Shown piece by piece: positions 1,735-18,889 of a DNA stretch of 25,119 nucleotides. The notes under the pieces were generated by a model, which saw only the letters and a program-made list of their open reading frames with translations, had not been told where the DNA came from and ran no database searches. Origin of the DNA: a virus (lineage: Duplodnaviria > Caudoviricetes); IMG/VR virus record IMGVR_UViG_3300044452_000162, positions 1 to 25,119 of that record; one strand, 5' to 3'. Each line of letters starts with the position of its first letter. Positions within the stretch are counted from its first letter, which is position 1. A program made the translations under genes and the position numbers.

Positions 1735-3708
1735 TTAAACTGAATTGATCGAAGGGGCTATTGATTGTGCCAGCAGGATGCCCCCGGCGGAATTTGGGTG
1801 TAAATTGTCAGATGTGTATTCAGATAAATTTATCAGATTTATCCCGCTGATGGAAAAGAGGTCGCAAACTGGGGTGCCAAAAAGCATGCAAACGTCTTTG
1901 ATAGCCTGCGCGTATTCAGGCAGCGTTGCCCCCACGCCGTTTGCTGCTGGATAAACGGGCTGGGATGAGAAAGCGCCGCGAATGAGTGGGGTGCTGAAGA
2001 TGATTCGGACTGTTGGCTTGAGCGTATACAGCGATTCTAAAGTTTGAAATACATCATTGTAAAAAGACTCTGAAACAGATCCGCTGAATGCATCGCTAAT
2101 GCTGCCTAGCTGCCGATTGCCACCATAGTCATTAGTCCCGCCAAATATGTGGATTATATCAGTATTCGCCAGATCGCCAGATGTCAGATCTGTGCCAGCA
2201 GCGTCTTTCGCCATGTCCCTTACGCTGCGACCCGATACCGCGAAGTTATTATCGGTAATCAATCCGGTTCTTAGGAGTGTTTCCGTGATGAAAAATCCAG
2301 CTACCGATATGCTGTCACCTACCCAGCTAACTTTTTTGCCTTGCCAAGGCCGGCTATTTCGATCGAAAGGCTTGAAACCTGCCAAAGGCGCCGCTTGCCG
2401 CAGCAACTGAAACCGGTCTATGAATGTGATATTAAAAATATGCAGGCGAACAAAGTGTGCGTTGCTCGGGGCTGTAAAGGCGGTGTTGTCTTGTACGGAA
2501 GTATTCGATGAGATGAATTCTCTATCGATGTCATAAAAACAAACCGCATTTGAATCATGGGATATAATTAATTGAGAACCTGGAAGAATATCAATGAAAT
2601 CAGTTGTAAAATAGTTACTGAATCCATAAGTGGACCCTGTAGTTGGGTTGATTGCCGTGTCAATCGCTGAGCGATCCGGGTCATGCGCATTAAAGTCTTG
2701 CGGCAAGCTGGCGAGGAGGGCTGTTTTTGATTTAATAAATGCCGAAGAAAGCGTTGCGGTGGGGCTTTGTGAATGCGGGGTGTACTGCACAGGAAGTGTA
2801 TCACTTGCTACCAGCATCAATTCATCGGATGCTGACAGTGGTGTTACATGCATTCGAATATAATACCCCCTTTCAGGAACAACGAACGAAACATCTTTGG
2901 TGATCGACATTTGCATGATGTGATTTTTATTTTCGTCGTAAAATGACATGGCGTTTGAGTCATGACTTGAAATCCATGACTCACCTGGATTTACCAGAAT
3001 GAATTCAGTGGTTATATAGTCTGAAAAACTGTACGTTGACCCGTTGGCAGCAAGCGCCGTGTTTTCCATCGCGTCATCAGGGTCGAAATAATTGAATTCA
3101 GAAGAAACGGTGCTTTTAATCCCGTTACGCACTATTTCCAAACGACTGCGCATAGCTGATGCTCGGTCATCTGGACTATACGAAACGAACTGATCGGGCA
3201 GTTCAGAGCCATTCACAAAAACCTGTTCAGTTAAGTCAGCATTTAAGGCTGAAAAGCGGATGTAGGTTGCATTTGCAGGTGCGACAACAGATCCGCCCGC
3301 GCTAACCCCTGCTACATAACTAATGAAATTTCTTAGATAATCATAAAAAGCAACATGCGCAACTTGGTTCGCAAATGAGTAATTTTCATTCGCGAAAATA
3401 AAAATAAATGGCGTCGCCTTCCATCCACTCTGGGAGGCAGGGTTGCCGTTTGAGAGAATATATGTATCATCAATCAATTGAGAGTCGTCTAATAAATTCT
3501 GCTGCTTCGGATAGCGATTTGATAAATCAAACGTGCGTCTGGTCACGGCTTCGTCGTGGATTGCTTTTGCGAGGGATGGCACGACGCCAGAATCGGTCGA
3601 TACGGTGTCCGTTTCGTCGCCATGCACCATTTCATGCAATAAATCAGCATCGGTGCTCACTTGCGTGGCTTTGGTCGTAATCGTATTGAGGTCATCTTGC
3701 AGGGTCAT
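1735..3708 (-). CDS. Putative receptor-binding protein/tailspike: N-terminal virion anchor, three repeated beta-rich modules, C-terminal SGNH/GDSL esterase
   Basis: Anchor motif LHEMVHGDETDTVSTDSGVVPSLAKAI; three ~85-130 aa repeats (T.FI...P, FYD....I, P..A.YIR); SGNH blocks WVGDSI, AVSG, GGTNDY, DNLHPN. Visibly more AT-rich than its neighbours. Confidence 0.8.
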   Translation of the reverse strand: MTLQDDLNTITTKATQVSTDADLLHEMVHGDETDTVSTDSGVVPSLAKAIHDEAVTRRTFDLSNRYPKQQNLLDDSQLIDDTYILSNGNPASQSGWKATPFIFIFANENYSFANQVAHVAFYDYLRNFISYVAGVSAGGSVVAPANATYIRFSALNADLTEQVFVNGSELPDQFVSYSPDDRASAMRSRLEIVRNGIKSTVSSEFNYFDPDDAMENTALAANGSTYSFSDYITTEFILVNPGESWISSHDSNAMSFYDENKNHIMQMSITKDVSFVVPERGYYIRMHVTPLSASDELMLVASDTLPVQYTPHSQSPTATLSSAFIKSKTALLASLPQDFNAHDPDRSAIDTAINPTTGSTYGFSNYFTTDFIDILPGSQLIISHDSNAVCFYDIDREFISSNTSVQDNTAFTAPSNAHFVRLHIFNITFIDRFQLLRQAAPLAGFKPFDRNSRPWQGKKVSWVGDSISVAGFFITETLLRTGLITDNNFAVSGRSVRDMAKDAAGTDLTSGDLANTDIIHIFGGTNDYGGNRQLGSISDAFSGSVSESFYNDVFQTLESLYTLKPTVRIIFSTPLIRGAFSSQPVYPAANGVGATLPEYAQAIKDVCMLFGTPVCDLFSISGINLINLSEYTSDNLHPNSAGGILLAQSIAPSINSV

Positions 3709-4208
3709 GTGACTAGGCTCGCTGGAAAGTCAGTGTGAACAGTGGTGTGCAATTGATCGGCGGCGGGATTGATTAAATCAACCATTTCGCCCAGATCGAG
3801 GTCGTCAGTCAGCAAGGCATCGAGGTCGTCTTTGCTCAGCTGCGTTGGCTTACTGATTTCCAAAGTCAGGGAGATTTCCCAGTACTTGCCCGCACGCTTA
3901 GCGCGTGGAAACGATGCCTCTAAAAAGCGGGCGCTGTGCGTTGATTCAATGCCGGCGCTGGTCTGCAAGGTAACCCCGGTTGCCCATGCTGCGCCGGCTG
4001 ACAAATAATAATCATACCAGGCCTCAAAAATTGCCAGTTGATCGGTGGTCATTATCCATGTCGCACGACAACGAACCGGCACCGTCGTGAAGCGACGGCG
4101 CACGATCGCGTGACCATACTCGCGCTCGGTTCGGATCGTCGCCGCTAACGGCTGATAATCCTGACGCCGCCCACACAGCGGCAACGTGGCTGGCCAAGCG
4201 GTACTCAT
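3705..4208 (-). CDS. Distal tail protein, gpM-like
   Basis: AWPATLP, IRTE.EYG....RRRFT, W.MT.DQLAIFEAWY...L.AGAAW, ARF, WEIS..LEI; directly after the tape measure gene with ATGA overlaps. Confidence 0.75.
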   Translation of the reverse strand: MSTAWPATLPLCGRRQDYQPLAATIRTEREYGHAIVRRRFTTVPVRCRATWIMTTDQLAIFEAWYDYYLSAGAAWATGVTLQTSAGIESTHSARFLEASFPRAKRAGKYWEISLTLEISKPTQLSKDDLDALLTDDLDLGEMVDLINPAADQLHTTVHTDFPASLVT

Positions 4209-6436
4209 CGCGACAAGCCCCCCGCCACCGGCAGGCCACGGCGTTCAAGCGCACTATTTAACGGCCCACGGCGTGATAAAATATCGCCCGCCAACATCGA
4301 GGCCACCTGCCGGCCAAAAGTCAAAATGCGGCGCCCTTCGCCGTCCGTGCTCTCTTCCGGCGGCGGTCCGTAATTGTTGATGATGATCGGCTGGCCGCCG
4401 ATTTGATGCGACGGCACCACCTCGCCACGCTCGCCGGCAAACATCCATTGCTTGCCCCCGGCGCGCCAAATCTCGGGCCCGTTTTCACCGACACGCGCCG
4501 TCGATCCGGCCGGCACAATCCCGCCATGCATCCGCCCACCGGCATACGGTGTGGCAGCAATTTGGGCGGCTGCGCCGAGACCGGCCGACAAATTGATACC
4601 GGCCAACACCTGCGCAAAGGTGGTATTCAATGGCCCGCCAAATTTCGTCGCCATCGCCAAGGTATTCGAAAACGCCAACCACGCATTGGCCGTCGCGCTG
4701 GCCACCGCAAACACCTTGTGCGCGTAAAATGCGGCCCGGTTGTTCTCGGCAGCTTGTTCCATCAATTGCGCAAGGTTTTGGTTCGCGTCGGCAATGCCGC
4801 GCACGTACAGGTCATTTTCCTGCAACTTGGCCCGGCGCTCTTGCGCGGCGCGCTTCATTGCCTGTTCGGCATGGTTCTTCAGGTTATTGTAGAAGTTCTT
4901 GGCCATCGATCCGGCCTGCTTGTAAAAGCTCGACATCGATTGCAGGTAAGATTTCCGGGCCGCATCACCACCCTTGCCCGGTGAATGAATCGAGGCCGCT
5001 TTGCCAGTCGTTTCTTCGGCCGCTGCATCAACGTCCGCGAACCATCCACGGATGGTTCGGCGCCAGCTTGCGGATCGGCTTCCGAATGTGCTGACCAACG
5101 CATCAAGCCAATTTGTTTCCTCTGCCAACTTCAGGCGTTGCGTACGCACGATGTCGTCAAGCCACGGGGTTTGAACCTTCGCATTGCCAATCGTGTTGAT
5201 TTTATCAACAAAATTATCAGTCGCATGCGATAAGTTATCAACGGCTTCATTCAGTTGTTCTTTGAGTTTGTCTGCCCCAAACCTGAAATCTGCGCCGATG
5301 GCGAAGAGCTCTGAAGCTATCGCGTCCATGCCCAGCTGGCTCGCTAGACCTGACATGGCCAAAGCAAATTCACGATAATCCTTGAGCCAATTGTTCATCG
5401 TATCGCGGAAGCCAAGCTGCATTTCAGCCCAAATTTTCTTGGCACCAGCGAACGCTAAATCAAAGCCGGCGATGATCGTATTGCCGATGTTTTGCATTTC
5501 GGACCAGAGGCGCTTGCGCATCTGCACGGTCACACGAATGAATTCCCAGGTCCATACTCGGGCTTGATAAAATGCTGTGCGCATGGCCTGCCAAAGAATG
5601 CGAAACCGTTGGCTCCAATCGGAAAAAAATGTCATCGTTTTTTCAACGCTGATACCAATTTTTTCGACAATCGCCGGCATGCCTCCGGCCTCGCGGGTCC
5701 ACATCACAATTTTATCAGTGATCACTGCGATCCCTGGAGCCAGGCGCACCGCCAGTTGTCTGGCAAACCCAGCCGCAATCTGGCCCATGCGGGCCAGGTT
5801 CGTGCCGGCCTGCTCGATGCGCGCGGCATCAAAGCGGCTCACGGTCAAGCCAAGCTCTTTGGCTTCTTGCGCCGCCCCATCCAGGTCTTCGCGCATGACG
5901 TCCAACATGGCGCTACCGCGTTGGCCCCAGATCTGCATAGCAATGCGCACGCGATCGCTTTGGGTGTCCAGGCCATTCATGGCTTCGGCGATCGCCTTGA
6001 ATTGATCGGCCGGTTGCATGCGGGCCAGCTCTGCGGCGTTCAGGCCCAGTTCATCCATGATCTTCACATAGGTGCCCATGCCGCTCTTGGCTTCGGACAC
6101 AAAGCGCGTTTGGCGCGCCAGGGATTTGTTGACCATTTCGCCAGATTGGCTGGCTAGCGTGGCGGCATGATGCAGGCCGGCCAGGCCTTCAGTGGATTGG
6201 CCCAGACGATCGGACACCTTGGCTAAGTCGTCTACCGCATCTAACTGACGTTTGACGGCATACCCCAGGCCAGCTGCTGCAGCGGCTCCGGCCACAGCTG
6301 CCGCTTTCACCGTCATTTTACTTTGCTGAGCAAACTTTTTCCAATGCTGCTGGGCATTTTTCAACCCCGCTTTCAGCTTAGCCGCATTCGCGGTCAGCTG
6401 TAAGGCGACGGTTCCAGCAGTCAGTTGTTTGCCCAT
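4205..6436 (-). CDS. Tail tape measure protein
   Basis: 743 aa, Ala-rich and helical; N-terminal G.VALQLTANA..LK.GL; C-terminal GGRMHGGIV....RVGENGPE and IIINNY motifs; follows the tail chaperones. Confidence 0.9.
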   Translation of the reverse strand: MGKQLTAGTVALQLTANAAKLKAGLKNAQQHWKKFAQQSKMTVKAAAVAGAAAAAGLGYAVKRQLDAVDDLAKVSDRLGQSTEGLAGLHHAATLASQSGEMVNKSLARQTRFVSEAKSGMGTYVKIMDELGLNAAELARMQPADQFKAIAEAMNGLDTQSDRVRIAMQIWGQRGSAMLDVMREDLDGAAQEAKELGLTVSRFDAARIEQAGTNLARMGQIAAGFARQLAVRLAPGIAVITDKIVMWTREAGGMPAIVEKIGISVEKTMTFFSDWSQRFRILWQAMRTAFYQARVWTWEFIRVTVQMRKRLWSEMQNIGNTIIAGFDLAFAGAKKIWAEMQLGFRDTMNNWLKDYREFALAMSGLASQLGMDAIASELFAIGADFRFGADKLKEQLNEAVDNLSHATDNFVDKINTIGNAKVQTPWLDDIVRTQRLKLAEETNWLDALVSTFGSRSASWRRTIRGWFADVDAAAEETTGKAASIHSPGKGGDAARKSYLQSMSSFYKQAGSMAKNFYNNLKNHAEQAMKRAAQERRAKLQENDLYVRGIADANQNLAQLMEQAAENNRAAFYAHKVFAVASATANAWLAFSNTLAMATKFGGPLNTTFAQVLAGINLSAGLGAAAQIAATPYAGGRMHGGIVPAGSTARVGENGPEIWRAGGKQWMFAGERGEVVPSHQIGGQPIIINNYGPPPEESTDGEGRRILTFGRQVASMLAGDILSRRGPLNSALERRGLPVAGGLSR

Positions 6437-12163: not shown

Positions 12164-13674
12164 AGATTATTCCCTTGCGATGCCGGGGCCGCATCGTCGG
12201 CGTTGTGTTGCGTGAAGATCGCCAGCAGCAGCTGGTCCGGGCCAAGCGGTGGCAGTTGCTTCTCGATGCGGTCCTGCTGGGCCTCGGCCATTTCTTCCAG
12301 CACCTGGTCGTACACCTTGCCACGGCGGGCGCAGACTTCTTGCAGGCTGCTGATGCCGTACGCCACCTCGAGAATATCGGTCTTGACCGCTTCCAGGCGG
12401 TTGGCGGACCCCGTCACGTCCGGGCGCAATTCAACGGCTAACACCGCCTCCCGGCGGTCAGGATCGCTTGGCAGGCGTTTGCCTTCCAGCATCCACAAAT
12501 ACGGCGCCACGCGTTGCCAGGGCTCTTCGGCGATCAATTGGCCAATCTCATCCTGCACCGGACCAATCAGTTTCTCACTGCGCAATTGGTCGTCACGGCT
12601 GGCCGAAAAATTGACCCGCGCGTTGTCGCGGTCCAACCAGCGTTGGCTGGTCCGGGTGATGGCAGCCACATCGCCGCGGGTGGTATGGCGGAATTCGTGC
12701 ACCTTGGTTGACGGGCGCTCTGACTTGATCTGGTGAAAAGTTTCCCCGGCTTCGCCGTGAAAAATTGAGCCGATCGGCATTTCGGTGATTGGTTCGGCTC
12801 CCTCTTCGGTACCCATCATGTCGCTGGTCGTGAAGACTGATGGGGTATTGGCCACCGTGCCGGCGCGCAATTCATTGACTACCATCGTGCCGTCTTGGAA
12901 AATACGCTCGACGGCTGGGGCCAGGCCTGGCTCACCAACCGATTGCCCGGCCAGGCGTTCCTCGAACACATAGGTGATCCATTGCGCATCGACGCGCTCA
13001 CCGTCGCTGCCGGGCTCTTCAGGGTCGCTCAGGTGATAGGCCGCCGCGCGGCCCATGCGGTCCAGCTCCACCCCGCCGGCAAACGTGTGCCCCTTTGGCA
13101 CTTTCACGACTTCAGACGTCGATAGCCATTCCGCCGGCAAGGCGCGGATCGATACCGGCGGCAGGCCACGCTTGGCCTTGTCTGGATCCGCGACCCAGCG
13201 CCACAGCACACCGCCGGTGCGCGGCATCGATCGCGCGGCCTGGCGTTGCAGCGTCCACAAACTGCGGCCGGTCACGCTGGCAGTTTTGCACCAGCGGCGC
13301 CAGCGTTTCATGATCTTTTTCTTGAATTTCTTATCTTTTATGCCGACCGGCTGCACGTCGATCGAGCGGCCAATGAGTTCAGCGGTGAAGCCCTCAACCG
13401 CACCACGGCCATACGGCGTATTGCAATCCAGCTTGGCCCCCTGCGCCTGCAACTTGGCCAATGATGGCACCAGGTGCTGATCAGGTGTGCCGCGCCTGGC
13501 CTGCATCTCGGCCAGGATCTTCCGGCGGTTGTTGGTGGCATCATAGGTATCACCACCAACGCCCAGGGCCTCGCCCTTGTTCCAGCTATTGCCGACCGAT
13601 GCCCGGCGCCCCTTGCTGCGCATCTTGCGACCCAAGACAGTCTGATGACGATGTCGATAGCTGTGGCGTCCCAT
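12160..13674 (-). CDS. Portal protein, lambda family
   Basis: L..N.PY..GAV, GGVELDRMGR..AYH, RLAGQ..GEP.LAP, NFSASR, YGISS..EVCA.RG..Y..VL.E.A motifs; position after gpW. Confidence 0.92.
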   Translation of the reverse strand: MGRHSYRHRHQTVLGRKMRSKGRRASVGNSWNKGEALGVGGDTYDATNNRRKILAEMQARRGTPDQHLVPSLAKLQAQGAKLDCNTPYGRGAVEGFTAELIGRSIDVQPVGIKDKKFKKKIMKRWRRWCKTASVTGRSLWTLQRQAARSMPRTGGVLWRWVADPDKAKRGLPPVSIRALPAEWLSTSEVVKVPKGHTFAGGVELDRMGRAAAYHLSDPEEPGSDGERVDAQWITYVFEERLAGQSVGEPGLAPAVERIFQDGTMVVNELRAGTVANTPSVFTTSDMMGTEEGAEPITEMPIGSIFHGEAGETFHQIKSERPSTKVHEFRHTTRGDVAAITRTSQRWLDRDNARVNFSASRDDQLRSEKLIGPVQDEIGQLIAEEPWQRVAPYLWMLEGKRLPSDPDRREAVLAVELRPDVTGSANRLEAVKTDILEVAYGISSLQEVCARRGKVYDQVLEEMAEAQQDRIEKQLPPLGPDQLLLAIFTQHNADDAAPASQGNNL

Positions 13675-13895
13675 CAGATACCGCCAATCTGCGCCCGGCG
13701 GAAGGGCCCACCGTTTTGCGCGCGGCTGATCTGCTTCTCCAGCTGGCGCCGCTCGCGATACAACGTTGCAAGCTGGGCCCGCTCGGTCGACGCGCCATCT
13801 TCGTGACTGTATTTTTGGCCACCCGTCTCGACCCGCGCAATCGCGGTTTCGATATTGGCTAAACGTGTCTGTAGGACTTCAAGCGAAGCAGGCAT
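13674..13895 (-). CDS. Head-to-tail joining protein gpW-like
   Basis: L..RLA.IETAI..VETGGQ.YS...G....RA.L..LY.ERR.LE..I pattern; immediately before the portal gene. Confidence 0.8.
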   Translation of the reverse strand: MPASLEVLQTRLANIETAIARVETGGQKYSHEDGASTERAQLATLYRERRQLEKQISRAQNGGPFRRAQIGGI

Positions 13896-13930
13896 GGACC
13901 CACGCTAAACACCACTTTTCCAGAAGTCAA
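13896..13930 (-). promoter_or_regulatory. Putative sigma70-type promoter for the head/tail operon, probably leaderless
   Basis: Minus strand TTGACT (13930-13925), 17 bp spacer, TAGCGT (13907-13902), then 6 nt to the gpW ATG with no SD. Confidence 0.55.
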
Positions 13931-13950
13931 AAATGGTTTGCCTCTGCCAT

Positions 13951-14007
13951 TTTTTTTGCCCCTGTTTTGAACCCCATTGACCCTGTTTTGACCCCTTTTT
14001 GAGGGTC
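13951..14007. repeat. Five helically phased T-tract/TTG(A/C)CCC-like repeats
   Basis: The G of each TTG falls at 13958, 13969, 13979, 13990 and 14001 (spacing 11,10,11,11). Confidence 0.7.
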
Positions 14008-14056
14008 TTTCAAAAATTAAATGTGTGACAGAAAAGCCTTGTTTTTGTGTTTTCTG

Positions 14057-14071
14057 TGTTACAATAAAACC
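14057..14071 (+). promoter_or_regulatory. Extended -10 promoter of the TA operon, probably leaderless
   Basis: TG-T-TACAAT at 14057-14065, then 6 nt to ATG 14072; no SD. Confidence 0.6.
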
Positions 14072-14308
14072 ATGTTGATCAATTGGAACGACCACAACCG
14101 CGCACACATCGCCAAGCACGGCGGTAGCGAAGCGTTGTTCGAACTGGTGCTGGCCAACAGCGATCAGTGGGTGCTTTCCGAGCCGCTCTATGGTCACACG
14201 GCCATTGCAACCATTGATGGGAAGGAATGGCAAGCAATTTTCATTTTCATCCATGACCTTCAGGAAGTCACCCCGATCACGATCTATCCAACAGAAAGAG
14301 GTGCTTAA
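14072..14308 (+). CDS. Type II toxin, BrnT/RelE-fold-like
   Basis: 78 aa, MLINWNDHNRAHIAKHGGS resembles the W...N..H..KHG.S start of BrnT-like toxins; C-terminal PITIYP strand; toxin-first order. Confidence 0.65.
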   Translation: MLINWNDHNRAHIAKHGGSEALFELVLANSDQWVLSEPLYGHTAIATIDGKEWQAIFIFIHDLQEVTPITIYPTERGA

Positions 14309-14309
14309 A

Positions 14310-14660
14310 ATGAAACATAAACTCGACGAAAAAACAGCTCGGAAAACAGCTCAGAAAATAGCTCACAAAATGAAAAACCTCACCGAGGAACAGATTGCTG
14401 CCAATCGGCGTGCCGCAGCACGCGTGCCGCGCAACCCTGATGGGTCCATCGACATGGAACAAGCCATTGCCGACGGTGAAGAAATGCGGCGTGAACACAT
14501 CGAGGCCCGCAAACGTGGCCGCCCTGTTGGCCCCCCCACCAAAGCCCGCAGCATCCGCCTGACCGTCGATCTCTGGGAACAAGCCGAAGAAAAAGCCCAA
14601 GCCAACGGCCAAAGCCTGAATGCCTGGGTCGCCGGCCTGGTGCAAAGATCAATCGGCTGA
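14310..14660 (+). CDS. Antitoxin with C-terminal ribbon-helix-helix (BrnA/HicB-like)
   Basis: ATG 14310 with SD AGAGGTG, 1 nt after the toxin stop; RGRP followed by SIRL..DLW......A...GQSLNAWV RHH pattern. Confidence 0.75.
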   Translation: MKHKLDEKTARKTAQKIAHKMKNLTEEQIAANRRAAARVPRNPDGSIDMEQAIADGEEMRREHIEARKRGRPVGPPTKARSIRLTVDLWEQAEEKAQANGQSLNAWVAGLVQRSIG

Positions 14661-14662
14661 CC

Positions 14663-14704
14663 GCCACCAGGTGGCTGCCCCGCTAACCCTTTCAAAGCGG
14701 GGCA
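14663..14704. terminator. GC-rich inverted repeats at the convergence of the TA operon and the minus-strand genes
   Basis: GCCACC-A-GGTGGC (14663-14675) and TGCCCCGCT-11nt-AGCGGGGCA (14676-14704); no clear U-tract. Confidence 0.4.
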
Positions 14705-14707
14705 ACA

Positions 14708-14726
14708 CCCAAACCAAGTGTTGGGC
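14708..14726 (+). other. attI-like simple recombination site
   Basis: CCCAAAC-CAAGT-GTTGGGC: degenerate L box, 5-bp spacer and GTTRRRY R box, the same geometry as attI1 (CCCTAAA-ACAAA-GTTRRRY); lies at the head of the attC-like array. Confidence 0.5.
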
Positions 14727-14735
14727 GGCACTGGT

Positions 14736-15023
14736 TTACGCAGGCATTTCCCCGTAAGCACTGCATTCTGGTTGCTCGCGGGGGTCGTACTCTTCCCAGT
14801 CGTCGCATAACTTATCTTCATCAGGGACTCTATCGTCTAGTGGTGTAAAGTCATTCTTCCAGAACACCCTCGGGACCAATTTCCCTATATCGTGCACAAG
14901 AATCCGCTGCAATGTCTCTGGGTTTTGCGCGCAATCTTCCTCGGTGTAAATTTTGGTCGGTTTGCCTGTGCGTATAATCCCGCTACGCATTGCACATCGA
15001 CGCTTTGCTGTTTCGTAGTCCAT
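14736..15023 (-). CDS. Cassette-borne hypothetical protein, weak resemblance to DUF2829/Tad2
   Basis: ATG 15023 with SD GAAGGAGA; 95 aa; M.Y.TA......SGIIR.G and P.ED.L.DDWE.Y termini. Confidence 0.55.
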   Translation of the reverse strand: MDYETAKRRCAMRSGIIRTGKPTKIYTEEDCAQNPETLQRILVHDIGKLVPRVFWKNDFTPLDDRVPDEDKLCDDWEEYDPREQPECSAYGEMPA

Positions 15024-15047
15024 AATTTTCTCCTTCGATTTCGCCCC

Positions 15048-15110
15048 ACCCAACAACGTGTTCAAGAAATCGGAGCCGCTAACGCGGCCCGCTTAACGCT
15101 GAGGTTGGGT
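15048..15110 (+). other. attC-like site A (63 bp)
   Basis: ACCCAAC-AACGT-GTTCAAG-AAATCGGAGCCGC-TAAC-GCGGCCCG-CTTAAC-GCTGAG-GTTGGGT: RYYYAAC/GTTRRRY cores, 5- and 6-bp spacers, extrahelical C at L'' position 4, second unpaired A, 4-nt bulge. Confidence 0.8.
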
Positions 15111-15466
15111 TACTTCTTGTTCTTACGACGCGTCTCGGCGTGTAGCTCGGCGTCGTATCGTAAATGGCAACGCTGGCACAGTGCGGCCAAGTTGGCGTGG
15201 TCGTTATTGTTGGTGTCGTGGTCAAGGTGCGCGATGGTAAGAACAACTCGGATTGGCTTGTTGTATAAACCAATGTCAAAACCGCGACATGTTTGATTGT
15301 CGTTGTCCTCGATATAGATATAATTTGCGCCATTAATTTTTGACCTGCGGATCATTTTATGATTTCTTACTCCGCAATTTTCGCAGCAATCGCCGGATCG
15401 CTTTAGTATTGCCGGACGAATCACTGTTTTCCAGTCGGTCGGGTATTTTGAATAATCGCAAGGCAT
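15110..15466 (-). CDS. HNH endonuclease (cassette-borne)
   Basis: DYSKYP.DW...IR..IL.R....CENCG and LTIAHLDH...NN...NL.ALCQRCH..YD; ATG 15466 with SD GAGG. Confidence 0.9.
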   Translation of the reverse strand: MPCDYSKYPTDWKTVIRPAILKRSGDCCENCGVRNHKMIRRSKINGANYIYIEDNDNQTCRGFDIGLYNKPIRVVLTIAHLDHDTNNNDHANLAALCQRCHLRYDAELHAETRRKNKK

Positions 15467-15493
15467 AATTTCCTCTGCTTTCCGATGGGCGTA

Positions 15494-15544
15494 ACCCAAC
15501 AAATGCGTGCAGGTGAGCAAGCCACCTGACGCTTGTGGTTGGGT
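15494..15544 (+). other. attC-like site B (51 bp, unusually short)
   Basis: ACCCAAC-AAATG-CGTGCAGG-TGAGCAAGCCA-CCTGACG-CTTGTG-GTTGGGT: 7/5/8...7/6/7 box layout, extra base at L'' position 4 and a second unpaired A. Confidence 0.75.
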
Positions 15545-15553
15545 GGCGCTGGG

Positions 15554-16033
15554 TTACTGGACCGCCGCTCGACCGTTCGCGTGCTCAAACGCCGCGGCGA
15601 CTGAATCGGTGATCAAGCGCTTGTTTTCATCAGGTGTATTCCGTGGACTGCATTGGCAGGTTGGCAAATCAGGGTATCCGTGCCATTTGCCATGGATGCC
15701 ATGCCAGCCATCTGACTCATGCAGCTCAATCAATGTTTTTGTGACCTGCTCCTGATCGCCTTTTACTCCGGCAAAAGCATGGCGATCAAACATAAAACAG
15801 CACTTCAATATCATTGGTTCATCATTGATTTTCTTTTGGGCATCTTGATATGAGTCAAACCCTAATTCACGGGCCACCGCATTCATGCAATCAATATGCT
15901 GCACCTGATCTGCCGAAATATGATCTTCCTCCACTAGATGATAATTAACGCGATTCAATGCGTCAATATCACCTGTTCTTGCCTGTTTCTTTAATCGTTT
16001 GGCTTGTTTTTTAATCATTGTTATCTGTGACAT
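15554..16033 (-). CDS. Hypothetical protein with N-terminal glyoxalase-superfamily-associated helical domain
   Basis: IKKQAKRLKK....NAVARELGFDSY pattern; ATG 16033 with SD AAGGA; AT-rich. Confidence 0.6.
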   Translation of the reverse strand: MSQITMIKKQAKRLKKQARTGDIDALNRVNYHLVEEDHISADQVQHIDCMNAVARELGFDSYQDAQKKINDEPMILKCCFMFDRHAFAGVKGDQEQVTKTLIELHESDGWHGIHGKWHGYPDLPTCQCSPRNTPDENKRLITDSVAAAFEHANGRAAVQ

Positions 16034-16078
16034 TTCATTTTCCTTTTGCAATTATTTCATTGCTTCGACGCTCGCTGC

Positions 16079-16312
16079 TCATGGGTCAGCCCTAATCTTT
16101 GGTGCGTTCGATTCTTCGACGAGCGTGAACTTGCGGGTGTATTCCTGAACCATGCTGAAATCGGTGACAGGATCGATGGCGGTGACAGTGTATTCTGCCG
16201 TGATTTGGATAGGCTCACCGATTTCCAAGGTGATCACCGCCTTACGGCAACCGTGCACGGGGATGCCAAGTTGGCGCAAGAGCTCCGGCCCAAGCACGCG
16301 ACTGCTGTTCAT
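16079..16312 (-). CDS. Hypothetical protein (77 aa)
   Basis: ATG 16312 in an ATGA overlap with the upstream stop; globular-looking sequence (MNSSRVLGPELLRQLGIP...). Confidence 0.55.
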   Translation of the reverse strand: MNSSRVLGPELLRQLGIPVHGCRKAVITLEIGEPIQITAEYTVTAIDPVTDFSMVQEYTRKFTLVEESNAPKIRADP

Positions 16313-16626
16313 GCCTGCCCCCCGGTCACCTGAATGGTATCGCCGCCTGATGGAGTGATGATACGGCGCAGCGGGGTGCCGCAGGCGCCGCAAATCAATG
16401 AATACACCAGGTTGCCATTCTCCAGCTTGCGCTTGCGCTTTTGCAGCGGCGTCATGCCACGACCGCAGCATGGGCCAATAATGCCCATGGCGGGCGGTTG
16501 CGGGACCTCGACATGAAGCGTTGGTTCTGCCTGAGGTTGGGCAGCCAAGTCGGTTTTGCGGGGGCGCCCACGGCGGGTGCCGCTGGATTGGGCATGCTGC
16601 GGGTTTTCAGTCTGTTTGTGTGGCAT
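16309..16626 (-). CDS. AT-hook plus zinc-ribbon protein, possible Ogr/Delta-like late regulator
   Basis: ATG 16626 with SD AAGGAG; RRGRPRK; PCCG...CGACG Cys pairs. Confidence 0.55.
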   Translation of the reverse strand: MPHKQTENPQHAQSSGTRRGRPRKTDLAAQPQAEPTLHVEVPQPPAMGIIGPCCGRGMTPLQKRKRKLENGNLVYSLICGACGTPLRRIITPSGGDTIQVTGGQA

Positions 16627-16643
16627 GTCGGGTGCTCCTTGTT

Positions 16644-16862
16644 TCATGCGCTCAAGTAGAAAAACAGCCAAGCAATGGCACCTGCGAGGTACCGGGTGGC
16701 TGCAGGGTTGGCTGCGGGGATGGCGCGGGTTGGCGGCAGGTTGATTGGCCGGATTGGCCTCGGCGTGCGCACGCGGGCGCCGATTGGGCCAATGGGGCAT
16801 TGATTCCTGATATAAATCACCGGTTCTGGCGATAATGCATCCGTTTGCGGGGGCGTGCTCAT
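16644..16862 (-). CDS. Possible small Pro-rich protein with hydrophobic C-terminus
   Basis: ATGA overlap with the terL stop; low complexity, may be non-coding. Confidence 0.3.
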   Translation of the reverse strand: MSTPPQTDALSPEPVIYIRNQCPIGPIGARVRTPRPIRPINLPPTRAIPAANPAATRYLAGAIAWLFFYLSA

Positions 16863-18889
16863 GCCGCCCCCCCGACGCGGCCAATAATGCCGGATCGACG
16901 TTGGTGTTGGGTGGTATCAAACCAGCCGCGTATATTCACCACGGCCATTTGTTGCACTTCACAATCAAACCAATGGTTGTCGGTGCGTACGTGCATGGTG
17001 CCTTTTTCGTCTTCCCACTCGCGCGGGCGCCAGATCATGCGGAGCTGGCGACGGCCACGGGTGGAAACCATCTCTTGGACTCGCTCTTCTGAGGTCAACG
17101 ATTCAGTATAAAATTCCGGGGCATCGGGTGGGATAAACCAGGCCTGCGGGGCAGCCTGCATCGCGGCCGACAGGTAATCGCGGTGGCTGTGGGCATTGAA
17201 AAACCAAACCCGTTTCAGGCCGGCCAGCTTGGCGCGGTTTTGTGGGCTTGATTTTATTTCTGACCACGGGTTGTCAGGGGCCATGGTGCCTGATCCGGCA
17301 ATCGATAAGCGGCGCTGGGGTTGTTTGGCGCACCATTGCCGGATGAATTTTTGCATCGGACCGTTGGCGCTGTCCATGGCGCTCAGGTCAATGCCGCGCG
17401 GTTGACCCCCCATCACCCATTCACGTTCCAGCAGCTGATCGCAGGCGTCAAAGCCGTTGACGTGACCGGCCTCGACCAAGTAGGATTCGCCGCTTTGTAG
17501 CCAGGCACGAACCACGTACGGGAACCATGATCGCAGCGGATCGATACCTTGCTGGTCCAGGGTCGCCAAGACGCGCCATGGCACCACCGGGCATTCGCTG
17601 TGCCGGTACGTCAGGCCCTCGGGCGTGGCCGGCAGCTGCACGTTTTCGACAGCTTCCTGATCGATGCCGCCGGCGCTGGCAATGTACGGGTCGCCGTCCC
17701 AGCCATTCACAAAAGCTTCGCGATCAGATTCACCGGCGCCGTGCGCCTCGATGCGTTTAGATACATACCGCGAAAGCGTGATAAATGCGGAATACAAACT
17801 ATTCATATGGCCACTCCGGTTACGGGCCCGCAATGGCGCCACGTGGTCTGGATTGATTTGATGTTGCCGATCGTATTCCACTACCGGGCGCCAGCTGCCG
17901 CCGGCCTTGTGTTGATCGTCAGCCGTCCAGATTCCGGCCAGCCAGCCGCCTGATTCAGAATACCACGGCACCACACAGGCCAGGTGCACGGCCTGGCGTA
18001 TTTCCTGCGTGGTTAAAGGCGTGCTGCAGGTTGGACATTTCCAACGGCCCAGATCTTCGTTCTCGATGGCGTCCGGATCGGTGCATTTCTCCAAAGCCAT
18101 CAGGCAATCAGGTTGCAGCCAGTGGTGGGCGCCGCAGTGCGGGCAGGCAACGTGCAGCCGTTCATGCGTACCCCGGCACAAGCGCGACCAGCCGTGATTG
18201 CTGACCGTGGTGGGCGTAGTCACGCCAAGAATAAATCGAGAATGTGGGAAGCCTTTTTGACGGTCTTCGACCAAGGCAATCGGGTTGCCTTCCCCCTGGC
18301 AGTCGATCGGGAAGGCGTCGAATTCGTCCAGTGCGACCAAGGGCAGGTCGTACGATCGCAGGTCTTGGGCGGAGTTACCGACCATCCAATGCAAGTCGCA
18401 CGTTGATAGCTTCCAGACTTTCACGCCCAGGCGGCGCTCAACCTCGGTCTGGCCCCCTGGTAATAATTCCCGCAGGCGCGGGGTTAATTCAAACATCGGT
18501 TGCAAGCGCGTGGTCTGCGCCTTGCGCAGGTCTTCGTTGCGCTGCAGGACCATGCCCATCGATCGCGGGCGCACGGCTGCGGTCCAACCGACCAATGGCT
18601 GCACCAAGCCTTGCGTTTTGCCCAACTGATTGGCGCAAACGTTGTAGATTGATTCAACCAGGTGCGCATGCGGATCATGGTCCAGCGGCTGGCCACTGAT
18701 GCGGGCCTGCGCGATGTTGAGCCAATGTTTCCAGTAAGGTGTTAAATCAGGATTGTACGGCGCCGGGCCCGATCCCCGGCTAATTTTCAAATGATCCCCC
18801 AGCCAATCATTGATGTTAGCACCGCGATCTTCGCGGACCCTGGCCTGCATGTCGCGGGCCTCATTGAAAATTGCCTTGGCAATGCTCAC
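16859..18889 (-). CDS. terL: Terminase large subunit, lambda GpA family
   Basis: YNPDLTPY Q-motif, Walker A ANQLGKT, Walker B VALDEFDAF, GVTTPT, CPHCG...CPTC zinc motif, C-terminal nuclease with LDQQ, MDS.NG, DNHWFDCEV. Confidence 0.95.
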   Translation of the reverse strand: MSIAKAIFNEARDMQARVREDRGANINDWLGDHLKISRGSGPAPYNPDLTPYWKHWLNIAQARISGQPLDHDPHAHLVESIYNVCANQLGKTQGLVQPLVGWTAAVRPRSMGMVLQRNEDLRKAQTTRLQPMFELTPRLRELLPGGQTEVERRLGVKVWKLSTCDLHWMVGNSAQDLRSYDLPLVALDEFDAFPIDCQGEGNPIALVEDRQKGFPHSRFILGVTTPTTVSNHGWSRLCRGTHERLHVACPHCGAHHWLQPDCLMALEKCTDPDAIENEDLGRWKCPTCSTPLTTQEIRQAVHLACVVPWYSESGGWLAGIWTADDQHKAGGSWRPVVEYDRQHQINPDHVAPLRARNRSGHMNSLYSAFITLSRYVSKRIEAHGAGESDREAFVNGWDGDPYIASAGGIDQEAVENVQLPATPEGLTYRHSECPVVPWRVLATLDQQGIDPLRSWFPYVVRAWLQSGESYLVEAGHVNGFDACDQLLEREWVMGGQPRGIDLSAMDSANGPMQKFIRQWCAKQPQRRLSIAGSGTMAPDNPWSEIKSSPQNRAKLAGLKRVWFFNAHSHRDYLSAAMQAAPQAWFIPPDAPEFYTESLTSEERVQEMVSTRGRRQLRMIWRPREWEDEKGTMHVRTDNHWFDCEVQQMAVVNIRGWFDTTQHQRRSGIIGRVGGAA

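Follow-up and report, generated by a model that had tools for sequence, protein, structure and literature searches.

A phage contig carries two integron-type cassettes whose genes run against the usual cassette polarity, and these were likely inserted or exchanged at G|TT crossover points by an IntI-type recombinase acting in trans. The contig (hereafter the window) is a whole virus record of 25,119 bp, with an estimated completeness of 36%. Three observations stand at the center of this account: the anatomy of the two sites, at 15048-15110 and 15494-15544, which are genuine attC-type sites; the inverted orientation of the genes that they delimit; and the different neighbors found at G|TT in co-occurring contigs.

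IntI integrases recombine the folded bottom strand, and this choice of strand aligns cassette genes with Pc, as set out in parts of two articles (PMC5371416, PMC8946536). Here the folded bottom strand would be the minus strand, which is also the coding strand. Newly acquired cassettes would enter at 14720, where the gene run has its downstream end, and each would bring an attC and an RBS ahead of its gene. Because the genes are inverted, the attI side offers no read-through of the Pc type; instead of Pc, the phage transcript that runs in the terL direction would express them by read-through.

The minus strand carries nearly all genes of the window: a gpA-type terL (16859-18889), a lambda-type portal, a protease-capsid fusion, tail genes, a primase, a ParB-like gene, and small ORFs. 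The gpW-like adaptor gene lies at 13674-13895, and a CI-like gene on the plus strand runs off the right end. In lambda-type phages, terL and gpW are adjacent. About 3 kb of accessory DNA (13895-16859) separates terL from the gpW-like gene in the window. The initial annotation had set the array between these two genes, and it does lie in this interval; however, it does not abut gpW directly, because a two-gene plus-strand operon (14072-14660) lies between. This operon, which runs against the phage direction, encodes a 116-aa protein that ends in an Arc/RHH-like domain (phrog_6506, E 3e-7) and a 78-aa protein that has no family match and for which a PDB sequence search gave nothing significant. 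We take the pair to resemble a toxin-antitoxin pair of the BrnT/BrnA type. The operon was also considered as a canonical cassette, which is not supported: no fitting G|TT start is evident. Past its stop, just left of the array head, lies a GC-rich hairpin (14677-14703, no strand assigned). GC content is 0.58-0.62 for the capsid, terL, and portal genes versus 0.45-0.52 for the array units. Far from the array, in the tail region, a 657-aa protein (1735-3708, minus strand) ends in a GDSL esterase domain (PF13472, E 1e-12).

Searches with terL and with the portal found no related phage with an empty locus; terL gave a single locus, at 25% identity, and the portal gave none. Among the matches listed, GenBank phage portals are 24-27% identical and none is close. 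A search for close relatives of the window returned DNA-level matches limited to HNH fragments.

Both attC sites have the coordinates, cores, and lengths that the initial annotation had given for two palindromes. The first, attC1 (15048-15110, top strand plus), comprises an R'' box (ACCCAAC), a 5-nt spacer, an 8-nt L'', a 7-nt L', a 6-nt spacer, and an R' box (GTTGGGT); its R boxes pair at 7/7 positions and its L boxes at 6/7. The second, attC2 (15494-15544, top strand plus), pairs at 7/7 positions in both R and L. Each folded bottom strand presents an extrahelical base in the L arm: G in attC1, and in attC2 the less usual C. Constrained folding of the bottom strands gives rough probabilities of 0.023 (attC1) and 0.49 (attC2) for the recombinogenic form, and palindrome folding gives z-scores of -3.1 to -3.8. 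A box scan that demands R pairing of 7/7 and L pairing of at least 6/7 yields, in the window, attC1 and attC2 on the plus strand and, less well, attC2 on the minus strand; in 200 dinucleotide shuffles, the mean yield was 0.005 and the maximum 1. A covariance model was trained on 45 of 116 bacterial attC sites of 50-76 nt, none from the window. It scores attC1 at 31.5 bits on the plus strand and 8.4 on the minus strand, and attC2 at 35.1 and 12.5 bits, so that both sites score far higher on plus; the best unrelated match reaches 14.1 bits. Box anatomy, shuffles, and model scores thus bear out the proposed identity of both palindromes as attC sites. An Rfam scan gave no attC-type match.

The sites delimit two single-gene units, of the sizes originally noted and each with a purine-rich, RBS-like leader: cassette 1 (14721-15104, plus strand; 384 bp, GC 0.52), with a gene for a 95-aa protein (14736-15023, minus strand), and cassette 2 (15105-15538, plus strand; 434 bp, GC 0.48), with an HNH endonuclease-family gene (15110-15463, minus strand; phrog_1571, E 6e-25). 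Neither had appeared to have a promoter, and a promoter scan indeed found no minus-strand consensus promoter directly before either gene. The layout had been described as that recombined by IntI. Its attC sites and units hold up, but its inverted genes had been overlooked: both lie on the minus strand whereas the attC top strand is on plus, so polarity is opposite to that of a canonical cassette. Each attC therefore stands in front of its gene, at a distance of 25-30 nt that includes the RBS-like leader, and the stop codon of the HNH gene overlaps the R' box of attC1.

A third unit (15539-16060, plus strand; GC 0.45) starts at G|TT 15538 and contains an orphan gene for a 159-aa protein (15554-16033, minus strand). 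Its start is of the cassette type, and the covariance model found no attC at its far end. Its first 20 nt are identical at 17/20 positions to the start at 14720, and pairs that agree this well number 5 of 2,701 in the viral set and 9 of 7,750 in the bacterial set. This rarity suggests that the two starts are likely related by descent; the 20-nt start motif itself was absent from 316 loci. The third unit is probably a fixed ex-cassette.

Cassettes elsewhere tend to pair with their own start rather than with the next one: own pairing wins 59:21 among 100 viral cassettes and 48:14 among 75 bacterial cassettes. Cassette 2 obeys this rule, with its own ends paired over 10 consecutive bases versus 7 for the next start, and a full cassette from the HNH family at another locus (L296) shows own-end pairing of 7/7. 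Cassette 1 breaks the rule, with a run of 6 for its own start, 7 with 15104, and 9 with 15538; its R'' pairs at 11/12 positions with the 15538 start versus 9/12 with its own. Insertion of the HNH cassette into attC1 was considered and is not established, as ordinary sequential insertion fits the 10-bp own-end pairing equally.

To what extent is the inverted polarity shared? The same pattern, scanner, and gene caller were applied to viral contigs (52 loci) and to bacterial genomes (122 loci, from 9 of 64 parts). The pattern was modeled on the sites of the window and hence samples one attC sub-type; the gene caller was a custom one, whose scored calls replaced a longest-ORF orientation classifier that shadow ORFs had misled. 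Fifteen of the 52 viral loci had no distinct site, and all of the other 37 were inverted (flank calls: 121 inverted, 0 same-strand, 23 without a call). Among the bacterial loci, 28 of 122 had no site; of the other 94, 75 were same-strand and 7 inverted, with 12 ties. The control, a class 1 integron, was same-strand. Canonical orientation was seen in two phage exceptions: a viral contig (L077) and the attC cluster of phage TJE1, in which three attC sites and the annotated genes are all on plus. The L077 contig carries five canonical attC sites (1869-4318) near a tyrosine recombinase that falls below the IntI cut-off. We propose that the array in the window belongs to a widespread pool of reverse-polarity phage cassettes, with cargo of phage type.

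The HNH family is common in phages, with 1,412 homologues, and the covariance model detected attC at 2 of 99 of its loci; both were inverted, and their attC sequences are unlike those of the window. The 95-aa protein also belongs to a phage family, with 115 representatives at E<=0.001 and 32 viral loci. Five apparent duplicates were left out (L054 stands for L056), and attC was found at 2 of the 27 loci scanned, again with sequences unlike those of the window. A search of bacterial genomes for this family, a weak test with a single peptide pattern, found no locus. It is an open question where integron cassettes come from. The cargo genes, both of them ordinary phage genes that occur with and without attC, would provide a handle on how cassettes are made.

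For the 95-aa protein there is a weak lead to the Tad2 fold. Language-model features score 0.89 toward Tad2. Foldseek searches with two models of the family placed Tad2 structures in the top rows; of the PDB rows listed, Tad2-family entries made up 14 of 17 for one model and 10 of 11 for the other, none of them significant (E 0.1-1.5, TM 0.33-0.48); a viral structure library also pointed weakly to Tad2. A profile search placed SPO1 Tad2 at rank 2 (E 0.8), and the N- and C-terminal motifs of the family are colinear with those of this protein. Structural re-alignment of a shorter homologue (P0014) with Tad2 gave Z 4.3 and 3.0 Å over 52 residues. No Pfam call was made in 38 members of the family (Tad2 is PF11195), and PDB sequence searches returned no significant match. 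The cargo thus resembles the Tad2/AcrIIA7 sponges (PF11195) in its colinear terminal motifs and top fold matches, but differs from them in having no significant sequence, Pfam, or fold match. From the models, a distant Tad2 fold is reasonably probable; that the protein is a putative nucleotide-signal sponge is a more tentative suggestion.

Variation with junctions at G|TT, which the initial annotation had proposed to look for in related prophages, was seen in related contigs from the same samples. The region was found in eight runs, in each as contigs only; contigs show presence rather than frequency and drop rare forms. Six of the eight runs are possibly the source of the window DNA, so the runs are not independent. 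A 151-nt contig from run X2 agrees with 14691-14725 except at one position and then passes into different sequence, so that the 14720 junction is seen in one contig of depth 2; the new sequence, on the minus strand, has its stop codon at the R box, as in the HNH gene. A variant HNH cassette differs from that of the window at 17 positions within 15104-15259, and an identical 11 recur among the substitutions listed for X2, X3, X4, X5, and X6. This variant has two different left flanks across runs. In X2 a foreign 24-nt flank, similar in its last bases to the 14708 site, gives way to the variant precisely at G15104. The match to the window begins at 15093 in X4 and X6, where it runs through the attC1 arm, and at 15098 in X5. 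The middle of the variant agrees with protein P0019 (67% identical), and the N-terminal extension of P0019 repeats the cassette leader of the window.

Further along the array, contigs from X2 and X3 follow the window over 15473-15502, up to and including the R'' box, and from there apparently enter another attC body, and X4 holds two contigs with attC1-like sites followed by other sequence past the R box. Neither an empty site nor a joint that jumps over an entire cassette turned up in the contigs of the eight runs; X7 and X8 leave some stretches uncovered, and these carry no weight. Related DNA from the same samples thus differs exactly at G|TT, in variant contigs that may be phage or host DNA. 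The array is probably still exchanging. Separately, one X4 contig shares 16007-16043, at the start of the orphan 159-aa gene, with the window and differs from it on both flanks.

What recombinase might act on the array? The initial annotation had noted no adjacent integrase, and a search of the whole 36%-complete contig for tyrosine recombinases (PF00589) was empty at E<=10. Nowhere in the contig does intI stand beside attI, the arrangement of a complete integron; with two close attC sites, and no integrase across a contig that extends 14 kb beyond it on one side and 9.5 kb on the other, the array has the makeup of a CALIN. A PF00589 gene is present in 5 of 39 viral records with such attC sites, and in 2 of 8 among those at least 90% complete. 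One of the five, a 47-kb record, passes the IntI cut-off (TIGR02249, 426 bits), and its IntI led to 47 viral loci with IntI relatives. With duplicates kept, these loci have 63 attC-like sites, of which 62 are on the strand opposite to intI and upstream of it; 60 of the 63 are inverted (1 same-strand, 2 without a call). The phage IntI loci (L310 and L317-L363) have in common an attI-like motif immediately ahead of the intI start, in which two GTTRRRY boxes are set 31 nt apart and GAATT precedes the second of them (the R box). A profile of this 43-nt motif was built from 27 occurrences (26 or 27 distinct) in 29 loci examined.

Such loci show that phages can encode IntI, and the array might therefore be run by the phage's own recombinase, of IntI or Xer type, from a part of the genome that was not assembled. 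The low completeness of the contig would leave room for this gene, a longer contig (34,947 bp) holds two of the proteins, and the CI-like gene suggests a temperate phage. Yet phage integrons have intI right beside a motif-bearing attI, a place that another operon occupies here, and 6 of the 8 viral records that are at least 90% complete and have such attC sites show no PF00589 match; this source of recombinase is very unlikely. Still less credible is a reading of the hairpins as terminators, or as inverted repeats that arose by chance between ordinary phage genes. Although a terminator scan picks up part of attC1 on the minus strand, and homologues of the cargo genes mostly lack attC (25 of 27 loci for the 95-aa family, 97 of 99 for the HNH family), this reading is set against the exact attC box geometry, the extrahelical base, the strand-asymmetric model scores, and the junction-precise variation.

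The remaining alternative turns on the head of the array. The attI simple-site geometry reported at 14708-14726 (plus strand) is borne out: a 7-nt left box, a 5-nt spacer, and G|TT at 14720-14722, exactly at the cassette start. AAC-N5 precedes 12 of 719 GTT positions in the window, and of these only this site, read on both strands, is a 5/7 dyad. Similar mini-dyads near other arrays numbered 2 in 231 kb of viral and 2 in 233 kb of bacterial sequence, none at an array head. The site could be an attI or the remnant of a decayed attC. In the latter case the array would be a relic, made of real cassettes that were captured en bloc or one by one at a secondary, attG-type GTT site, with 14708-14726 as an attC that has decayed or collapsed rather than a working attI. 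Insertion of cassettes by IntI at GWT sites in genomes is described in a preprint (bioRxiv 10.1101/2022.09.11.507474), and the third unit has lost its attC. The published TJE1 array includes a 16-nt collapsed R''-R' dyad (L364:306-321), which makes a remnant possible at 14708 as well. The site is identical to the attI1 simple site (taken from L290) at 9/15 positions. On the phage attI profile it fails, at -48.4 bits and rank 165 of 718, versus leave-one-out scores of 15.6-57.7 bits for the 27 sites; the array therefore does not head a phage integron of that class.

Against a relic stand the scores of the site as attC: 7.8-8.6 bits on the covariance model and, taken as R'' plus spacer, 0.6 bits, below every training site, which leaves a collapsed attC unsupported on the plus strand. 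(A decayed attC at 14681-14726 was likewise rejected, as it would need several changes and the attC model has no match there.) Against it, too, are the contig that shares the same 35 nt and then diverges, and the second cassette behind a similarly ending flank. A relic array is unlikely, and 14708-14726 is slightly more likely than not a working attI. The preferred reading, exchange in trans by an IntI-type recombinase, can be extended, with less assurance, to a live, integrase-free docking site: 14720 would be a true attI, the phage would borrow a host IntI to load cassettes from a phage-specific pool of reversed polarity, among them a hitherto unrecognized, distant counter-defence family of Tad2 type, and the contigs would capture this exchange in the population.

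Phage CALINs (attC clusters without integrase) have already been published (Qi et al. 2023, PMC9892861); that article reports recombination with IntI1 for 5 of the 6 phage attC sites that it tested. The array shares with those described there its at least two attC sites, which delimit small genes with no intI nearby, and it adds a candidate entry site next to which the first gene varies. The one example checked from that article, TJE1, has genes and attC top strands on one strand, whereas in the window they are opposite. Inversion of genes relative to attC is not described in the portions of its main text covered here, and no reversed phage cassettes appeared in the integron and phage literature as judged by titles and the starts of abstracts, with subscription papers mostly outside the scope. 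Phage CALINs are therefore known, and the inverted layout was not found in print.

Compared with classical integrons, the array has the same attC boxes, G|TT crossover, own-end complementarity, and promoterless single-gene units; it differs in its contig without intI, its reversed gene polarity, and the lack of a Pc that reads into the genes from the attI side. With the phage-encoded IntI integrons of the 47 viral loci, it shares the reversed polarity, in which genes are read toward the attI end. In those that have attC, however, intI adjoins an attI that is conserved, with GAATT ahead of its R box and a GTTRRRY repeat located 31 nt upstream, whereas the site in the window has no such motif; also unlike them, the array lies among packaging and head genes.

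Reverse-polarity phage cassettes would presumably be silent in a host integron and expressed from phage operons. If this is true, phage and bacterial cassette pools would stay functionally apart while sharing one recombinase. The locus contributes population-level evidence on junctions together with an integrase-free candidate docking site, and hijacking of host IntI is directly testable. Finally, the replication region of another phage (L054:800-7650) contains at least eight inverted attC-like sites dispersed among small genes, and these include two near-identical 49-nt mini sites at 3908 and 6542.
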